Shown: positions 22,456-31,100 of the stretch, one piece after another | Numbering within the stretch: position 1 is the stretch's first letter | How the letters are laid out: each line of letters opens with the position of its first letter | IMG/VR virus record: IMGVR_UViG_2568526722_000002 | Coordinates: 1-54,562 of that record | Length of the DNA stretch: 54,562 nt | Reading direction: 5' to 3' (one strand) | DNA from: a virus | Taxonomy: Duplodnaviria; Heunggongvirae; Uroviricota; Caudoviricetes | Notes under the pieces: generated by a model | Seen by the model: the letters and a program-made list of their open reading frames with translations, nothing else | The model's database searches: none | Told to the model about the DNA's origin: nothing | Made by a program: the position numbers and the translations under genes

Positions 22456-24309
22456 TTAGTAATTCATGGCGGTTGTTATTCTGCCGTTATCCTCGACGTT
22501 ATAGGTTTTCTTCTCCCCCTTATCATTGACCAGGGTGATTTCCAGCTTCATTTTCTGATCGGCCATCGCCTCTTTGAGGGACCGGGTCAGGTTTTCACTG
22601 ACAGTGTCTCTCCCATTACCGGAAGCTGTCAGGATTGAGGAACTGTCAAACTTGTCCGGTTGCGGTACGAGGATGTTCTCTCTCTGCTGGCTGAGCACTC
22701 GGCTGTCACGAAGACCAGACCAGCGCGGATCACTGATAGCCGTCTGAATTGCCGCCCGTATCTCATCTTCAGAATATGGCTGCGCCCCATTCTCATGCTG
22801 AATCATGGCCGCCATGACTGACTTCAGCACCTCCGGGTTATGCAGATCCACCCGCTGCTGGGGTTGAATACCTGTCGCGGCCGATACTGAATTGATATAG
22901 GACTGCGTATCATTTTCCGAGCGTGGCGCATAAGTGTGGATCATGCTGTTCAGCGTGTTATTCCCACGATCGCCATATAACATCAGTTGCCGGGCCATTG
23001 CCGCCAGCCCGTCGCTGCTGTTGTCATAAGTGACGAAACCACGATTCACCCCGGTCGCATTAGGCGCTATCCGGAGATTGCCGGGGTTATTATTTCTCAG
23101 GCCCAGTGCCTGGTTAGATGGCTGGCTGTAATTCACTTCTCTGCGTGGAACTGCTGCACCTGCTGGCAGGATGACAGACAAATCATTTCGGAGTTGTTCA
23201 GCTCTGTCCCCGGCGCCATATTGCGCGTCGTAGCGTTTACGGACGGCATCAGTCATAAAGCCGGCATCCACCGCTCCGCGCTCGCGCCGGGAAAGGGTGT
23301 TATACAGCGCCTTATCACCCTGAATGCGGCGTAGCTTCCCGGCATCCTTGCTACTGATAAACCCCAGCGCATGCGACAGCCCGGTGAAATCGCCATTCGT
23401 GAACAAGTCGGTCACTCCTTCAAGGCCGTCTTTCACCGAACCATCGGAAAGCAATCCCTTAAACAGAGAGTTTTTCGAACGGTTTTTCAGCCCATCCCAT
23501 GCAGCGCCCAGCTCATTCATGGAGCCGTTAACCTCGGACAATTGCCGGTTAAGTTCCGGATCAACCGTCAGGCCAAGTTCATCAGATTTAGCCAGCAATG
23601 CTTTCATCCGTACGCCTTCACGCATCAGCGCCAGCATTTCCGGCGTCAACCCGAGGGCATCGGAAACTGATTTCTGCTGGTCCGGTCGCAGACTCGGGAA
23701 AACGCGTGCTATCGACTCCAGCGTTCTCAGCGTATCAACGGATCCATCGTTGTTTTTCTGGATCTGAACGCCAATCTGTGACAATGCGCCGAGCACCTGG
23801 CTGTTGGCACCACTGGCGGCCTCCTTCAGGCTTTTAGCCATCCCCTCGATGGAGGAATTTGCACTGTCGCCATCAGCACCCAGTATCCGCATGGCACCGG
23901 ACAGGCGGGAAAAATCGTCCACTCGCATACCCGCATTTTTCGCGGCGACATCGAGGTTATAGGCTTCCCTTGAAGCCTCATGGAAACCGTAGGCAATCTG
24001 TTTTAGCCCATATCCCGCCGCTCCAACAACCCCCAGTGATGCCAGCTTACCGGAGAGCTCACCGACCATCTTCAGCGGTGGTACCATGTCCCCGATGTAC
24101 TGAACATTATCACGGGCATTTTTGGACAGATTTTCGAAGCGGGAAATAAAGCCGTTCAGTCCATCGAGGGTCTCCTGCCCTCCTAACTGGAGTCCCTCTT
24201 TGGTTTTATCCAGCTTTGGTTCCAGATCACGGATAGCCTCATTGATACGCTCAATGGCTTCCGTCGCCTGGTCGCTGGCCACCAGCTCAAAGTCGAAAGA
24301 ATTACTCAT
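22456..24309 (-). CDS. tail tape measure protein (Mu-type tail)
   Basis: 617 aa, alpha-helical and repeat-rich; follows the frameshifted chaperone pair. Confidence 0.8.
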   Translation of the reverse strand: MSNSFDFELVASDQATEAIERINEAIRDLEPKLDKTKEGLQLGGQETLDGLNGFISRFENLSKNARDNVQYIGDMVPPLKMVGELSGKLASLGVVGAAGYGLKQIAYGFHEASREAYNLDVAAKNAGMRVDDFSRLSGAMRILGADGDSANSSIEGMAKSLKEAASGANSQVLGALSQIGVQIQKNNDGSVDTLRTLESIARVFPSLRPDQQKSVSDALGLTPEMLALMREGVRMKALLAKSDELGLTVDPELNRQLSEVNGSMNELGAAWDGLKNRSKNSLFKGLLSDGSVKDGLEGVTDLFTNGDFTGLSHALGFISSKDAGKLRRIQGDKALYNTLSRRERGAVDAGFMTDAVRKRYDAQYGAGDRAEQLRNDLSVILPAGAAVPRREVNYSQPSNQALGLRNNNPGNLRIAPNATGVNRGFVTYDNSSDGLAAMARQLMLYGDRGNNTLNSMIHTYAPRSENDTQSYINSVSAATGIQPQQRVDLHNPEVLKSVMAAMIQHENGAQPYSEDEIRAAIQTAISDPRWSGLRDSRVLSQQRENILVPQPDKFDSSSILTASGNGRDTVSENLTRSLKEAMADQKMKLEITLVNDKGEKKTYNVEDNGRITTAMNY

Positions 24310-24493
24310 CGGGTTCGGGATTCCTGAGTTTATTGATACGGGAGGCCTGCGATACCCACCACTTCAGACGGGCATAGGTCATGCCCCATGCCCTGTCTTC
24401 TGTCCAGCGGAAATAAAATGTGACGTCAGCGGCCGTTTCCTGCCAGGCGGTCAGGGCTTCCAGGTCAAAAAACCGAGCAAAAACTCCTCGCAT
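24302..24493 (-). CDS. tail assembly chaperone -1 frameshift extension (GT-like)
   Basis: 63-aa ORF in the -1 frame overlapping the chaperone 3' end; slippery heptamer T_TTT_TTG (minus strand, about 24466-24474). Confidence 0.55.
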   Translation of the reverse strand: MRGVFARFFDLEALTAWQETAADVTFYFRWTEDRAWGMTYARLKWWVSQASRINKLRNPEPDE

Positions 24494-24729
24494 TTTCGGA
24501 AGTCGATAAAATCCATCGGCTGAAGCACACTTTCCCGCGTATCCGTGACCAGCGAGATCAGCAGGCGCATCGCCGCCAGTGAAGTGGACGATGCCTGCTT
24601 TTCGTAGAACTGCTCTGCCTGGCTGAGCGTCGGCGCCTTCAGCTCCAGTTGCTCATAGCGTGTTTTTTGCGCCTCATCGACCAGAGGCTTGATGAGGGGA
24701 ATGACTTTGGTGCGTTCAAGTTCTGCCAT
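24451..24729 (-). CDS. tail assembly chaperone (G-like)
   Basis: 92 aa between the tube and tape measure genes; ends at the slippery site. Confidence 0.65.
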   Translation of the reverse strand: MAELERTKVIPLIKPLVDEAQKTRYEQLELKAPTLSQAEQFYEKQASSTSLAAMRLLISLVTDTRESVLQPMDFIDFRKCEEFLLGFLTWKP

Positions 24730-24730
24730 C

Positions 24731-25102
24731 TTAGTTCTCCGTTACGTCCCGGCCTTCCCAGCGAACATCAAACACTGCATCTTCGCTTTCCACTTCCTGA
24801 ACGTTCACCGTCCATAGCGCGCGACCGATAATAGTCTTTCCGTTCGCCAGTTCGGCGATCACGTTGACGTTCGTCTGTTTGTTAAAACCCAGTACGTTGG
24901 TACCGCCGCTGTCGCGAAGACGGGCAGAAATATACGGGGCAACCGGCTTTTCTTTGTAGCCATGCACACCGTCCATGCCTGTCAGTGTGGTACGGTTAAC
25001 AGTGGAGGTCTGATACTTGAATGAGCCCTCCACCATAACGGTCACCCCGTTTACGGTGACATAAGCGGTACCTGCCAGGCGATTAGTGGTATCTCCAGCC
25101 AT
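24731..25102 (-). CDS. tail tube protein (Mu M-like)
   Basis: 123 aa, directly downstream of the sheath gene. Confidence 0.7.
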   Translation of the reverse strand: MAGDTTNRLAGTAYVTVNGVTVMVEGSFKYQTSTVNRTTLTGMDGVHGYKEKPVAPYISARLRDSGGTNVLGFNKQTNVNVIAELANGKTIIGRALWTVNVQEVESEDAVFDVRWEGRDVTEN

Positions 25103-25105
25103 GTT

Positions 25106-26617
25106 TTATGCTCCTGTTGATTCAGCCTGCAGGCGAAACTGGTTAAGCAGCGCGAAGATGCGCAACTGGTTCATAAGCGTTCCCGGCCACAACACATCGA
25201 CGCGGTTCGGATTTGTTTTGTTCTGCTCCACGATAATGTTTCTGGCGAAGGCCTCAGCGTCCTGCGCGTAGCCGTTAAAGACCAGCGTCTGGTATTCCGC
25301 GATCTGATCGGCTCTGATGATGTTTGGCGTCACAATCGCCGCCCCCGGCGCAAAACGCGTGCCATCCGCGGCCAGCTTCATGCGACCAAATTTACTGGTC
25401 ACTGCAGTGCGGAGATATCGTGTGACAAACATCAGGCTGAAGAGCGTTTCCACCTGCAGGTAACTGTCGTCTTCGTCGCCATAGCTGTTTTTCTGGTAGG
25501 TGGTAATCAGGTTTTCAATCATCACCGTCCCGTCATCACCCACGGTGTAAGTGGAGATGCCGCTGTACAGCAGGTTATTGCGCTCTGTCAGTTCAAAGCG
25601 ATCCGCCAGGTCCGGTGCCAGCACGCCATAAACAGGCAGACTTTGTAGCGGGCGTCCGGGGTCATTACGCAGGCTGGGTGCAGCGGCCCCTGTCAGTGCC
25701 GCCGCCCAGATATAACGCGGTGATGGTGAGCGGTACACGCCAAGCAGTGACTCATGCTGGTTATTACGGGTTTCCCCTTTGGTGCCAAGCTCGGCGTAAG
25801 TGCCGTTGGTGGTGGTGAATGCGTGGCCATAAAGCTGTTTATCCCATGCCCAGCGGCCGGTTGCATCGTTCAGAAATTCTCTGATGGCATCCAGTGATGC
25901 GGTGTCATCATAAGGGTTGATGACAAAATCAAAGGTCTTATCCTGCAGGTTGCCAAGGGCATCAACAAAATCCGGCGCGCCGGCGCCGCCGGTCATGCCC
26001 GTGATGGTGAGTGTCAGGCCCGCGGGCGTCACCTCACCACCCTGAACACCGAGATAATTCAGCCTGATATCAATACCATTGCCCAGCAACCCGGCATTTT
26101 TGGCCGTCAGTGTCACGGTATCCGTTGCATCGGCTTTTACAGCAGCTGTCACCGGCAGTTCCGTTTTGCGGGTAATCGCCGCGACCAGCGCAGTGGCAAT
26201 CTGAGCCGGAGTGTCAGTCGCCAGTACGGTCAGTTGTACGCGAACGCCAGCAATATAAAGAGAGATAACGCCGGTTTCTGCCGCCTGTGTGGCAACCTTG
26301 ATACTGCCAGTTGCCACTGCCATCGAATCCGCATCATCAGCCAGCGGAAGGATCCAGACCTCCGCAGCAGTATCGTTTTTTTGATACGCCGTCATCATGC
26401 CATGCAGCATTGATCCTTTTCCGGTGAGCTCACCCACCGCATTGGGAGAGGAGACTTTTACCGGGATTTTTTCCTGTGCAGAGCCTGATGCCAGCATCTG
26501 ACCAATCAACAGCGTTCGTTGTGTAGCCGTCGCCGTGTTGGCCATGGAGTTATCAAACTCCACATAAAAAAGCGGCACACGTAAATTGCCGGGAACTCGC
26601 GAAAATGGAACGGTCAT
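25106..26617 (-). CDS. tail sheath protein (contractile tail)
   Basis: 503 aa; size and position typical of Mu L-type sheath proteins. Confidence 0.8.
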   Translation of the reverse strand: MTVPFSRVPGNLRVPLFYVEFDNSMANTATATQRTLLIGQMLASGSAQEKIPVKVSSPNAVGELTGKGSMLHGMMTAYQKNDTAAEVWILPLADDADSMAVATGSIKVATQAAETGVISLYIAGVRVQLTVLATDTPAQIATALVAAITRKTELPVTAAVKADATDTVTLTAKNAGLLGNGIDIRLNYLGVQGGEVTPAGLTLTITGMTGGAGAPDFVDALGNLQDKTFDFVINPYDDTASLDAIREFLNDATGRWAWDKQLYGHAFTTTNGTYAELGTKGETRNNQHESLLGVYRSPSPRYIWAAALTGAAAPSLRNDPGRPLQSLPVYGVLAPDLADRFELTERNNLLYSGISTYTVGDDGTVMIENLITTYQKNSYGDEDDSYLQVETLFSLMFVTRYLRTAVTSKFGRMKLAADGTRFAPGAAIVTPNIIRADQIAEYQTLVFNGYAQDAEAFARNIIVEQNKTNPNRVDVLWPGTLMNQLRIFALLNQFRLQAESTGA

Positions 26618-29234: not shown

Positions 29235-29642
29235 TCAGGAGGTGGTTAAAGGTGCCTGGGCGCTGTCTTTCAGGAAGATGGCCAGCGGACGTAGTGCTGT
29301 TTTCAGTTCCGGCGCAGTCCAGGAATCGTCAAAAATAATATGATTCTGGTTGAACTCGCCCATCAGGTACAGGCCGCCGGACTGATCGCCATGGGTGGAA
29401 GCGTCAACATCATCAACCAGAATGGCCGCTGGCGTCTCGCTACCATCCGTTGCGGTTTTCACACTGGCTGTATATTTGCCACTGGCGGTGATCATGCCAA
29501 GCACAGTGCCACGCTTATACACACCGCCGGTGATCGTGCCGGTGTCAGTGACCAGTTGCAGCGTACCGGCAATTAACTGATCCGGCACAAACACTGAACT
29601 CTTCATGCCAGGTGCAAAGGCATTCTGACCAAATTGATCCAT
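29235..29642 (-). CDS. head decoration protein (lambda gpD-like)
   Basis: 135 aa; position between scaffold-like and capsid genes. Confidence 0.7.
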   Translation of the reverse strand: MDQFGQNAFAPGMKSSVFVPDQLIAGTLQLVTDTGTITGGVYKRGTVLGMITASGKYTASVKTATDGSETPAAILVDDVDASTHGDQSGGLYLMGEFNQNHIIFDDSWTAPELKTALRPLAIFLKDSAQAPLTTS

Positions 29643-30232
29643 TATTTCTCTCCTTTAATGGAGTTGTAGAGGCCGGTCATCTGGTTTACCAGTGCCGATT
29701 TACCGTTCTCTTTCTTGCCGCCATCCGGATTCAGACGGACATCATGGCTTTCCTGCATGCGCTGATCGAGAGAGCGCCCGCGCGTTGCCTTTGGTTGCAA
29801 GGCTGGCGCCGTGGATGCCAGAACATCGATAGCGGCGGCAGAGCTCATCCCGGTATTGAATGCGAGTGAAGCGGCCAGTGACGGATTCGCCGCAGCGTGC
29901 TTACTGCCGAAGATACGGGCGCAACGTTTACGCTCGGCGGCGCGGGCATTTTTCACCGCTTTGCTTTCTTTGCGGTCATCGTCGCCGTCATCTTCGGAAT
30001 CGTCATCGTCTTCAGCCGCATCCGGGTCGTCACCGTCATCTTCAGCGTCATCATCACGATCGTCGTTTTCCGCGTCATCTTCGCGTTCATCGTCCCCGGC
30101 ATCATCTTCGCGCTCATCCTCTTCCGCGCGACGGCCTTTCGCTTTTTTGGCCTTTTTGTCCTCTTCCTCTTCGGAAGCAGTCGCGCCACGGCCAATAAGA
30201 TGAGCAAAACTAAAAGTCTTTTTCTTCGCCAT
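29642..30232 (-). CDS. putative scaffolding protein (highly acidic)
   Basis: Internal start of track ORF 29642-30316 (ATG at 30232, just after the protease stop); long D/E-rich tract. Confidence 0.4.
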   Translation of the reverse strand: MAKKKTFSFAHLIGRGATASEEEEDKKAKKAKGRRAEEDEREDDAGDDEREDDAENDDRDDDAEDDGDDPDAAEDDDDSEDDGDDDRKESKAVKNARAAERKRCARIFGSKHAAANPSLAASLAFNTGMSSAAAIDVLASTAPALQPKATRGRSLDQRMQESHDVRLNPDGGKKENGKSALVNQMTGLYNSIKGEK

Positions 30233-30233
30233 T

Positions 30234-31100
30234 TCAGGCTCCTGTTTTTTCAAGTAAGTTTCTGAACGCAGCATCAGGAGGACACACCTCATCAGCCAGT
30301 CCAAGTTCCACACCATCAGCAGCCATAAAACAGGCAGCCTGAGTACTTTTGATAACCTTTGCGCTAATCCCCCGATTTCTGGCGACGGTATTCACAAACA
30401 ATTCGCCCATGGTGTTGATGTCCTGCTGAATAGCCGCCAGCGCTTCATCTGACAGCTCTCTCAGCGGTGCCCCCTCAGCCTTACGGGAACCGTAGGTGAT
30501 GATGGTGACTTTGAGGCCGTCATCTTTTATCCGCTGGGTCCAGTCAAGGTGCATAGTGATCACACCAACTGAACCCACACCACCGGTTCGGGGAACAGAA
30601 ATCCGGTCCGCCGCACTGGCAATCGCATAGGCGGCGGAATAGGCGCTTTCCGTCAGAATGGCATGGATGGGCTTTTTCCCGCGGGCGCCATAAATGACAT
30701 CGACCAGATCGAAACATCCGGCGACCTCGCCTCCTGGCGAATCAATATCCAGGCAGATCCCTGTAATATCGGGGTCTTCCATCGCAGTCAGGAAGGCCTG
30801 GCGAATGCCGTCATAGCCTGTCATGCCACTGTATGGGCGCAGGCTACCCAGCTTCTGCACCAGGGTCCCACATATCGGAATGACAGCGACGCCCAACACA
30901 TTGTCATAACCCGGGTCGCTACGGGATTCCCGCCCCCGGTTATCATCGTATCCATACCAGTCATCATCCATGGCAAGAGAGGATTCGATTTTACTGATGC
31001 CAAACCGGTCCATAACGGATGCCATGATGACTTCAGCTTTACTTGGGTGCAGCGCCAGCGGTGTATTAAAAAGGCGCTGGGCCAGATGAGGTAGATTCAC
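30234..31100 (-). CDS. head maturation protease (S49 / ClpP-like peptidase)
   Basis: 288 aa; S49-type core; directly downstream of the portal gene. Confidence 0.8.
   Translation of the reverse strand: MNLPHLAQRLFNTPLALHPSKAEVIMASVMDRFGISKIESSLAMDDDWYGYDDNRGRESRSDPGYDNVLGVAVIPICGTLVQKLGSLRPYSGMTGYDGIRQAFLTAMEDPDITGICLDIDSPGGEVAGCFDLVDVIYGARGKKPIHAILTESAYSAAYAIASAADRISVPRTGGVGSVGVITMHLDWTQRIKDDGLKVTIITYGSRKAEGAPLRELSDEALAAIQQDINTMGELFVNTVARNRGISAKVIKSTQAACFMAADGVELGLADEVCPPDAAFRNLLEKTGA

Follow-up and report, generated by a model that had tools for sequence, protein, structure and literature searches.

The window, by which we mean the whole 54,562-nt stretch of DNA analysed (IMG/VR record IMGVR_UViG_2568526722_000002), belongs to a prophage of a temperate E. 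coli myovirus. All features of the locus are on the minus strand, a point missing from the preliminary description. The genes are ordered tail sheath, tail tube, chaperone, -1 ORF and tape measure, followed by Mu-type DNA-circularisation and hub proteins, as assigned by Pfam and PHROG. The tail sheath gene (503 aa; 25106..26617) was identified by matches to PF04984, PF17482 and phrog_165 (E 2e-190), and the tail tube gene (123 aa; 24731..25102), directly upstream of the chaperone, by matches to PF10618 (E 1.1e-35) and phrog_185 (E 3.4e-31). The tape measure gene (617 aa; 22456..24309), annotated as tmp in phage phiNP, matched phrog_2276 over its full length (E 4.7e-142).

Two overlapping ORFs separate the tube gene from the tape measure gene, as in G/GT-type cassettes. 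The first is a short ORF of 92 aa (24451..24729, with its TGA at 24453..24451), the analogue of lambda G and P2 gpE. The second is a 63-aa ORF (24493..24302) taken from the ORF list, and its TAA (24304..24302) overlaps the tape measure ATG at 24309 (ATGAGTAA).

Identity and annotation of the chaperone ORFs

The 92-aa ORF was present in the ORF list and was named 'phage tail assembly protein' by PGAP. It matched PF10109 (Phage_TAC_7), a family described as covering P2 gpE, Mu gp41 and gp14, with 29.9 bits (E 5.6e-7; gathering threshold 25 bits), residues 11-88 aligning to profile positions 3-78 of 79. It also matched phrog_166, 'tail protein' (E 1.8e-25). These family matches identify the upstream ORF as a tail assembly chaperone.

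The peptide encoded by the -1 frame matched phrog_10636 (E 2.8e-20), and no significant match was found in Pfam or NCBIfam, including PF06528, the family of P2 E'. With PF06528 (Phage_P2_GpE; threshold 23 bits), neither the fusion of the two frames nor its T part gave a match even at E <= 10, and P2 E+E' scored 76.3 bits in the same search. A weak match of the -1 part to DUF6760 (E 0.14) was disregarded. The only match in a PDB profile search, to PSRP-3 (E 0.0033), was judged spurious, and a single-sequence AlphaFold2 model of the fusion was unusable (mean pLDDT 46.8). No Rfam family matched at the locus. In RefSeq and GenBank only the 92-aa protein is annotated; the fusion is absent and a gap of 141 nt is left, which is occasionally miscalled as a small hypothetical ORF.

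A slippery heptamer precedes the chaperone stop codon

The sequence TTTTTTG occurs at 24472..24466, at offset 257 of the 92-aa ORF, and is read there as T_TTT_TTG in the X_XXY_YYZ phase. The zero-frame codons over it, GGT TTT TTG, encode G86, F87 and L88. Between L88 and the TGA are four sense codons (ACC TGG AAG CCC), in agreement with the preliminary description, which had the chaperone ORF ending a few codons beyond this heptamer. The -1 frame, entered at the GAC at 24466, continues for 54 codons to the TAA as a T-type extension (24302..24466), so the 63-aa ORF does run on in the -1 frame past the heptamer, as had been proposed. Joining the two frames gives a predicted fusion of 142 aa (24302..24729), the GT or E+E' analogue.

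The motif itself is not enriched in the window, with 17 copies on both strands compared to 16.98 expected from shuffles. The significance of the heptamer therefore rests on its position, phase and conservation rather than on motif count. A survey of 213 mechanical ORFs picked out the chaperone as the sole real gene that combines an in-frame slippery heptamer no more than 15 codons from its stop with a -1 extension of 30 codons or longer. A nearby G_TTT_TTG (24484..24478) was considered as an alternative slip site and rejected; it is not conserved, and relatives mostly have TAT CTG or TAC CTG there.

Conservation was examined in 94 homologous stretches: the window, the copy of the prophage in E. 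coli and 92 related loci. As these relatives are not phylogenetically independent, fewer independent observations underlie the counts than the numbers suggest. Among complete E. coli genomes, 19 of 5,426 carry the lineage, which also occurs in hundreds of enterobacterial contigs and in two cultured phages, BZS1 and phiNP, the latter cultivable on E. coli K-12. The heptamer is in frame and invariant in all 94 stretches, down to 50% chaperone protein identity. Twelve codon pairs can encode Phe-Leu, and TTT TTG is the pair used in every stretch; Serratia phage BZS1, read separately from the 94, has TTT TTA, giving T_TTT_TTA. Zero-frame third-position diversity falls from 0.3-0.5 along the gene to 0.04 over the heptamer and 0.02 in the overlap. 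Collectively, the evidence points strongly to the tail assembly chaperone gene being the site of programmed -1 ribosomal frameshifting, a reading we hold with high confidence; the slippage itself is inferred from these patterns.

Because the slip site is a homopolymer run, the same fusion (G-F-F-D...) could in principle come from transcriptional slippage, in which RNA polymerase adds one U at the six-T run to give a U7 mRNA. The protein made from such an mRNA would be indistinguishable from the product of a P-site slip, and a one-T insertion in the DNA does yield a contiguous fusion ORF, as in a Raoultella assembly with seven T. However, known productive transcriptional slippage in bacteria involves runs of ~9 A or T (PMC5009743), compared to six here, and the T-run stays at six without drift to 7-9 in any of the 94 stretches. 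Furthermore, what is conserved is not a bare T-run but a phase-specific X_XXY_YYZ heptamer including its final G (A in BZS1), and the homologous P2 site is ascribed to translational frameshifting. We thus regard transcriptional slippage as improbable. The Raoultella ORF (P0001, 134 aa) was also considered as a natural in-frame fusion and set aside: it has a second frameshift further on besides the seven T, most probably reflects an assembly error in a homopolymer and hence lends no support.

The -1 frame is coding and is probably entered at the heptamer

Access to the -1 frame was examined in 60 distinct relatives. In 33 of these, a -1-frame stop lies 0-5 codons 5' of the heptamer with no start codon between the two, which leaves a frame change at this site as the only way into the -1 frame. 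The change is confined to 22-37 nt in these relatives (55 nt in one), and the heptamer is always inside this interval. In the window itself, 10 codons of open -1 frame precede the heptamer, and an ATG located 7 codons before it starts the 63-aa ORF. Similar ORFs are sometimes called by gene callers in relatives (P0101 and P0120), and the 63-aa ORF could on these grounds be translated from its own ATG as a separate small protein. The ATG is not preceded by a Shine-Dalgarno (SD) sequence, however (preceding sequence ATCGACTTCCGAAAATG), and is one case of an NTG that arises as a by-product of the TGY codon of an invariant chaperone Cys. The stop between NTG and heptamer in 33 of 60 relatives, with no later start, also argues against this, since T codons 1-28 are still strongly conserved with coding periodicity, and a free T domain would be without the part that binds the tape measure. 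Independent initiation is therefore very unlikely. Of the 63-aa ORF as first described, the continuation in the -1 frame stands, whereas its ATG start is incidental.

Past the heptamer, the -1 frame is the sole stop-free frame in 55 of 55 relatives, both other frames being stopped. Its diversity by codon position is 0.143/0.064/0.319, and that of T codons 6-28 is 0.095/0.053/0.359, the periodicity of coding sequence. As in G/GT pairs, then, the downstream ORF is coding and has no independent translation start. That no recoding occurs, the heptamer and -1 ORF being kept for other reasons (the FL residues and an untranslated spacer) and the 92-aa protein being made alone, would agree with present annotations and with the chance frequency of the heptamer in the window, but it is scarcely credible, since an untranslated spacer would not give periodicity and freedom from stops in one frame only, TTT TTG is retained despite the 12 codon pairs available, and the -1 peptide matches a PHROG family.

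In contrast to these alternatives, a conserved -1 frameshift of the G/GT type fits the comparative evidence of an invariant heptamer, -1 periodicity and, in most relatives, no other entry. Gene order, family match, heptamer and periodicity together support the G/GT arrangement upstream of the tape measure gene that the preliminary description had put forward. Its proposal of a programmed -1 frameshift signal in the chaperone pair likewise gains support from geometry, phase and conservation, and from likeness to the P2 E/E+E' site.

Candidate stimulators of frameshifting

An SD-like GAGGAG (24484..24489), formed by the codons for E81 and E82, ends 11 nt 5' of the heptamer, close to the ~10-nt spacing of the internal SD of dnaX, and is a candidate 5' stimulator. 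Its predicted anti-SD duplex is the strongest in the G-T region (-8.4 kcal/mol vs -6.9 for the next best). The AGG of the element is invariant in the 60 distinct relatives. Codon 81 is always NAG (GAG in 56, AAG in 3 and CAG in 1), while 52% of other Glu codons are GAA, and, away from the slip and overlap region, no other degenerate codon has a third position that never varies. Phage BZS1 has GAGGAC at the same 11-nt spacing.

No support was obtained for a 3' stimulatory structure such as the stem-loop of dnaX, and this candidate was rejected. The 86 nt 3' of the heptamer fold at -22 kcal/mol, which does not improve on shuffled sequences (z = +0.85), and the consensus from RNAalifold on 12 diverse relatives was -7.15 kcal/mol, without covariation (covariation term +0.13). 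We tentatively suggest, at less than even confidence, that the invariant GAGG(AG) is a genuine dnaX-type 5' stimulator that sets the G:GT ratio in the phiNP/BZS1-like lineage. If so, tail-chaperone frameshifting would be tuned here by rRNA-mRNA pairing, and the lineage would be a natural setting in which SD-only stimulation of -1 frameshifting could be studied cleanly.

Comparison with known frameshift systems

Frameshifting of the G/GT type in tail assembly chaperone genes is reported as a class by Xu, Hendrix & Duda (2004). For P2, the -1 frameshift that yields gpE and gpE+E' within the FETUD tail operon is experimentally established, as reported by Christie et al. (2002) and Xu, Hendrix & Duda (2004). 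The GenBank record of P2 E/E+E' annotates a -1 frameshift at GGT TTT TTG, with products of 91 and 142 aa, and the shift at TTTTTTG occurs without a downstream hairpin (PMC3091744). The locus studied here resembles P2 in several respects. The short product falls in PF10109 in both; the slip context GGT TTT TTG is identical; the products are 92 and 142 aa here and 91 and 142 aa in P2, from 428 nt in both. In both, the cassette lies between the tube and tape measure genes, the extension stop overlaps the tape measure start in the same way (ATGAGTAA), and a downstream hairpin is lacking. The family profile is colinear with P2 E+E' (residues 6-132 vs 3-136; hhalign E 2e-4). By these profile and sequence comparisons, the chaperone fusion is distantly homologous to P2 E+E'.

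The two systems also differ. Identity is only ~25-28%, and the -1 domain here has no PF06528 score, its distant similarity being seen by BLASTP and hhalign only. The zero-frame stop is 4 codons past the heptamer here and 6 in P2, and the SD-like element is 11 nt upstream here, whereas the AAGGTGG of P2 is ~4-7 nt upstream. Furthermore, the tail module is Mu-type (PF10618 tube, DNA-circularisation protein and gp44-like hub), not P2-type.

In Mu, a -2 shift at a different sequence has been verified (PMC5009743). The chaperone gene holds the same position in the homologous Mu module (sheath, tube, chaperone, tape measure, gp43, gp44), and Mu gp41 scores 24.7 bits against PF10109, just under the 25-bit cut-off. 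However, Mu gp41 is a 144-aa protein of PF23746 with a -2 shift, while here the extension occupies the -1 frame. A PF23746-type relationship was not found, since gp41 had no detectable similarity to the chaperone family profile (hhalign E 0.74).

In lambda, a low level of -1 slippage yields the long form gpGT alongside gpG, and tail assembly depends critically on the ratio between them (PMC5009743). As in the locus studied here, two chaperones share a common N-terminus and their genes lie between the major tail and tape measure genes. The lambda heptamer is G_GGA_AAG, and lambda is a siphovirus rather than a phage with a contractile tail; the two are likened by arrangement and not by sequence. 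E. coli dnaX (A_AAA_AAG) likewise combines an X_XXY_YYZ heptamer with an SD-like element 10-11 nt upstream, but it has a 3' stem-loop, for which no support was obtained here, and differs in gene and purpose.

Proposed mechanism

We propose that the majority of ribosomes would read 24729..24451 and stop at the TGA, giving the 92-aa chaperone. A minority would slip back by one nucleotide on U_UUU_UUG (24472..24466), with P-site tRNA-Phe and A-site tRNA-Leu re-pairing to UUU UUU. The slipped ribosomes would then read 54 further codons in the -1 frame to give the 142-aa fusion, composed of chaperone residues 1-87, a residue 88 whose identity, Leu or Phe, is set by how the slip occurs, and 54 residues from the -1 frame. 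The predicted junction peptide is CEEFLLGFLDLEALTAWQETAADVTFYFR (...GFLDLE...) for a tandem slip in which Leu is kept, or CEEFLLGFFDLEALTAWQETAADVTFYFR (...GFFDLE...) for a P-site slip or transcriptional slippage. Apparently no 3' RNA structure would be involved, and the internal SD-like GAGGAG may make slippage more efficient, as the internal SD does in dnaX.

On the model of lambda G/GT and P2 E/E+E', the N-terminal domain shared by both products may bind the tape measure protein and the -1-encoded domain may recruit the tube protein. The frameshift would thus determine in what proportion the two chaperones are supplied to the assembling tail; as chaperones, they would not be expected in the virion. 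In the related phage phiNP, particles are viable and have contractile tails (PMC6456863), indicating that the tail module works.

Biological significance

The frameshift is an unremarkable case of a familiar device, strongly conserved and absent from database annotation, and it leaves the current understanding of phage tail assembly and recoding unchanged. The cassette provides a small example of mosaicism, with a P2-type chaperone cassette (-1, TTTTTTG) inside a Mu-type tail module in place of the -2 site of Mu. The conserved SD-like element offers a testable hypothesis for how frameshift efficiency may be set without RNA structure. The main value of the finding is for annotation: the 142-aa product is missing across the prophage lineage, and with the fusion recognised, the set of tail-assembly genes is complete.

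Organisation of the tail assembly chaperone pair

The preliminary description had proposed a programmed -1 frameshift in the tail assembly chaperone pair. Coordinates and phase were re-read, and its account of both ORFs and the heptamer was correct, all three lying on the minus strand. In the ORF list, the 92-aa chaperone ORF spans 24729..24451 and the 63-aa -1-frame ORF 24493..24302. The reverse complement at the chaperone 3' end reads ...TGC GAG GAG TTT TTG CTC GGT TTT TTG ACC TGG AAG CCC TGA. The heptamer TTTTTTG (24472..24466) lies at offset 257 of the 92-aa ORF, which sets its phase as T_TTT_TTG (X_XXY_YYZ pattern), with four sense codons between it and the stop. From the heptamer G, the -1 frame (GAC CTG GAA...) continues for 54 codons to a TAA at 24304..24302, and this stop overlaps the start codon of the gene that follows (ATG, 24309) in ATGAGTAA. 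The product predicted for a -1 slip is a 142-aa fusion.

The 92-aa protein matched Pfam PF10109 ('Phage tail assembly chaperone proteins, E, or 41 or 14'; 29.9 bits, cut-off 25) and phrog_166, and the -1 peptide matched phrog_10636, a family of unknown function (E 2.8e-20). Genes for the tail sheath (PF04984, phrog_165) and tail tube (PF10618, phrog_185) lie upstream. The downstream neighbours encode a tape measure protein of 617 aa (phrog_2276, E 4.7e-142), a DNA-circularisation protein resembling Mu gp43 and a baseplate hub resembling Mu gp44. This is the canonical location of a G/GT pair, as had been claimed. Towards its C-terminus (residues ~388-530), the tape measure protein (window 22456-24309 (-)) also matched phrog_873, labelled endolysin (E 1.7e-42), and phrog_7182, labelled tail injection transglycosylase (E 5.1e-15), which suggests a domain that degrades the cell wall; the motif LGLRNNNPGNLR is present in the protein.

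Elsewhere in the window, the Hfq-binding sRNA isrJ (Rfam RF01393) was matched over its full length at 38420-38493 (-) (68.7 bits, gathering 37, E 1.3e-10), between small minus-strand ORFs within the prophage region. A 224-aa ORF (29642-30316 (-)) with a very acidic, low-complexity centre of D and E runs shares 83 nt with the 3' end of a 288-aa ORF (30234-31100 (-)), and ORFs of 135 and 349 aa follow downstream. From their positions, these neighbours look like genes for a protease, a decoration protein and a capsid protein, and the acidic ORF like a scaffold.

Position and conservation of the slippery heptamer

Counting both strands, the window contains 17 copies of TTTTTTG; shuffles predict 16.98. 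The motif by itself is no more than chance, and its position and phase carry the weight. We screened 213 mechanical ORFs for slippery heptamers that are in frame, lie at most 15 codons from the stop and open into a -1 extension of 30 codons or more; three cases emerged, including the chaperone. The remaining two appear to be artefacts: one ORF is nested in another reading frame of a 1129-aa gene, and the other is on the plus strand where the region otherwise has minus-strand ORFs. An imperfect G_TTT_TTG at 24478-24484 (-), in the same phase and 12 nt upstream of the real heptamer, was rejected as unconserved, most relatives having TAT CTG there. In one relative (locus L030) it is a perfect T_TTT_TTG, giving that phage two tandem in-frame slip sites.

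Relatives were drawn from genome contigs (12 loci) and viral contigs (80 loci). With the E. coli prophage copy, Citrobacter phage phiNP and the window, the comparison set comprised 94 homologous stretches (60 distinct nucleotide sequences). The heptamer was present and in phase in 94/94, down to 50% chaperone identity; in Serratia phage BZS1, read separately (L098 1740-1765), T_TTT_TTA takes the place of T_TTT_TTG. Zero-frame third-position diversity, 0.3-0.5 along the chaperone gene, fell to 0.04 at the heptamer and 0.02 at the dual-coding overlap. Transcriptional slippage on the T6 run would yield the same protein as a ribosomal shift, but is unlikely, since known bacterial cases involve runs of about nine (PMC5009743) and it is the phase-specific heptamer, rather than T-run length, that is conserved.

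In 33 of the 60 distinct relatives, a stop closes the -1 frame 0-5 codons before the heptamer, and neither ATG, GTG nor TTG occurs in between. The change of frame is therefore confined to 22-37 nt (55 nt in one), a stretch that reads exactly TAG|TTTTTTGACCTGGAAGGCCTGA in five sequences. Independent initiation of the -1 ORF, for which the window offers a start, is thus contradicted as the general route of expression, the extension being nevertheless conserved as coding, and the start of the window's 63-aa ORF is incidental. The absence of any recoding is contradicted by the extension itself: 3' of the chaperone stop, -1 is the only stop-free frame in 55/55 same-length relatives, and its diversity by codon position (0.143/0.064/0.319) is the signature of a translated frame, with -1 codons 6-28 alone giving the same pattern (0.095/0.053/0.359). 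Collectively, the invariant in-phase heptamer, the coding -1 frame and the lack of another entry in 33/60 uphold the proposed programmed -1 ribosomal frameshift, which we consider very probable.

A single 134-aa ORF joining chaperone and extension (P0001; L095 1501-1905, Raoultella ornithinolytica GCA_901420735.1) was examined as a natural in-frame fusion. Its T-run has seven T versus six in relatives, and a second indel near the 3' end truncates the ORF; it is probably a homopolymer assembly error.

Candidate stimulatory elements

A 3' structure is unsupported at the frameshift site. The 86 nt after the heptamer folded no better than shuffles (z = +0.85), and a 12-sequence consensus fold was weak, with covariation absent. 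The absence of downstream structure has likewise been reported for P2 and P2-like phages (PMC3091744). On the 5' side, a Shine-Dalgarno (SD)-like GAGGAG (24489..24484, minus strand) ends 11 nt before the heptamer and is the strongest predicted anti-Shine-Dalgarno partner across the G-T region (-8.4 vs -6.9 kcal/mol for the next best). Its AGG was invariant in 60/60 distinct sequences, and codon 81, whose residue varies (E, K or Q) yet which is always NAG, is the only degenerate codon among the 92 outside the slip/overlap region with a never-varying third position, statistics that are weakened by the phylogenetic non-independence of the sequences. Elsewhere in the chaperone gene, GAA makes up 52% of Glu codons. 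BZS1 has GAGGAC at the same 11-nt spacing. These patterns point to nucleotide-level constraint. The -1 frameshifting of dnaX is stimulated by an internal SD located 10 nt 5' of the shift site, and an estimated 56% of IS-element frameshifts have elements of this kind (PMC5009743). Because of these precedents and the apparent constraint, we propose GAGGAG as a candidate 5' stimulator.

Relationship to known systems

The record for P2 gpE/gpE+E' annotates a -1 frameshift, the site having the sequence GTC GGT TTT TTG TCG. In P2, a span of 428 nt encodes products of 91 and 142 aa, and the stop of E' and the start of gene T overlap in ATGAGTAA; the window's site has exactly this geometry. P2 E+E' matches PF10109 and PF06528, whereas the window's extension falls short of PF06528. 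BLASTP across the junction aligned the fusion with P2 E+E' at 25% identity (E 2e-4), and a 15-sequence family profile was colinear with it across the two domains, pairing residues 6-132 with 3-136 (28% identity, E 2e-4, probability 47%). Mu gp41 differs in using a verified -2 shift (PMC5009743), and no similarity was detected between it and the window's chaperone family, although the surrounding tail genes are Mu-like. The window's pair, embedded in a Mu-type tail module, and the P2 pair are probably distantly homologous. PDB and NCBIfam searches returned nothing informative, and a single-sequence AlphaFold model was unusable (pLDDT 46.8).

Occurrence and annotation

Among 5,426 complete E. 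coli genomes, the 531-bp region was found at >=95% identity in 18 and at 60-80% in one more, always chromosomally. In RefSeq/PGAP annotation (E. coli NZ_CP041110.1), the 92-aa 'phage tail assembly protein' is the sole product called from the pair, leaving 141 nt unannotated (L001 3331-3471, equivalent to window 24310-24450) ahead of the tape measure gene, itself labelled 'hypothetical protein'. In other genomes the -1 frame is sometimes called as a stand-alone hypothetical ORF (P0101, P0120). The annotations of the cultured relatives phiNP (75% nucleotide identity) and BZS1 (vB_SspM_BZS1; 48% protein identity, the most distant) include the short chaperone only and no frameshift product. The tail module is functional, as phiNP particles are viable and have contractile tails (PMC6456863).

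Proposed mechanism and significance

Most likely, tRNA-Phe and tRNA-Leu slip in tandem into the -1 frame on U_UUU_UUG, which would give a product of ~142 aa with the junction ...LLGFL-DLEAL...; slippage of the P-site tRNA alone would give ...GFF-DLEAL.... The site would work like P2 E/E+E' and lambda G/GT. By analogy with lambda (PMC5009743), binding to the tape measure protein would fall to the shared N-terminal domain and recruitment of the tube protein to the -1 domain. The recoding device is ordinary and well understood, while this instance of it is new and unannotated; only the conserved SD-like sequence at dnaX-like spacing is mildly new.
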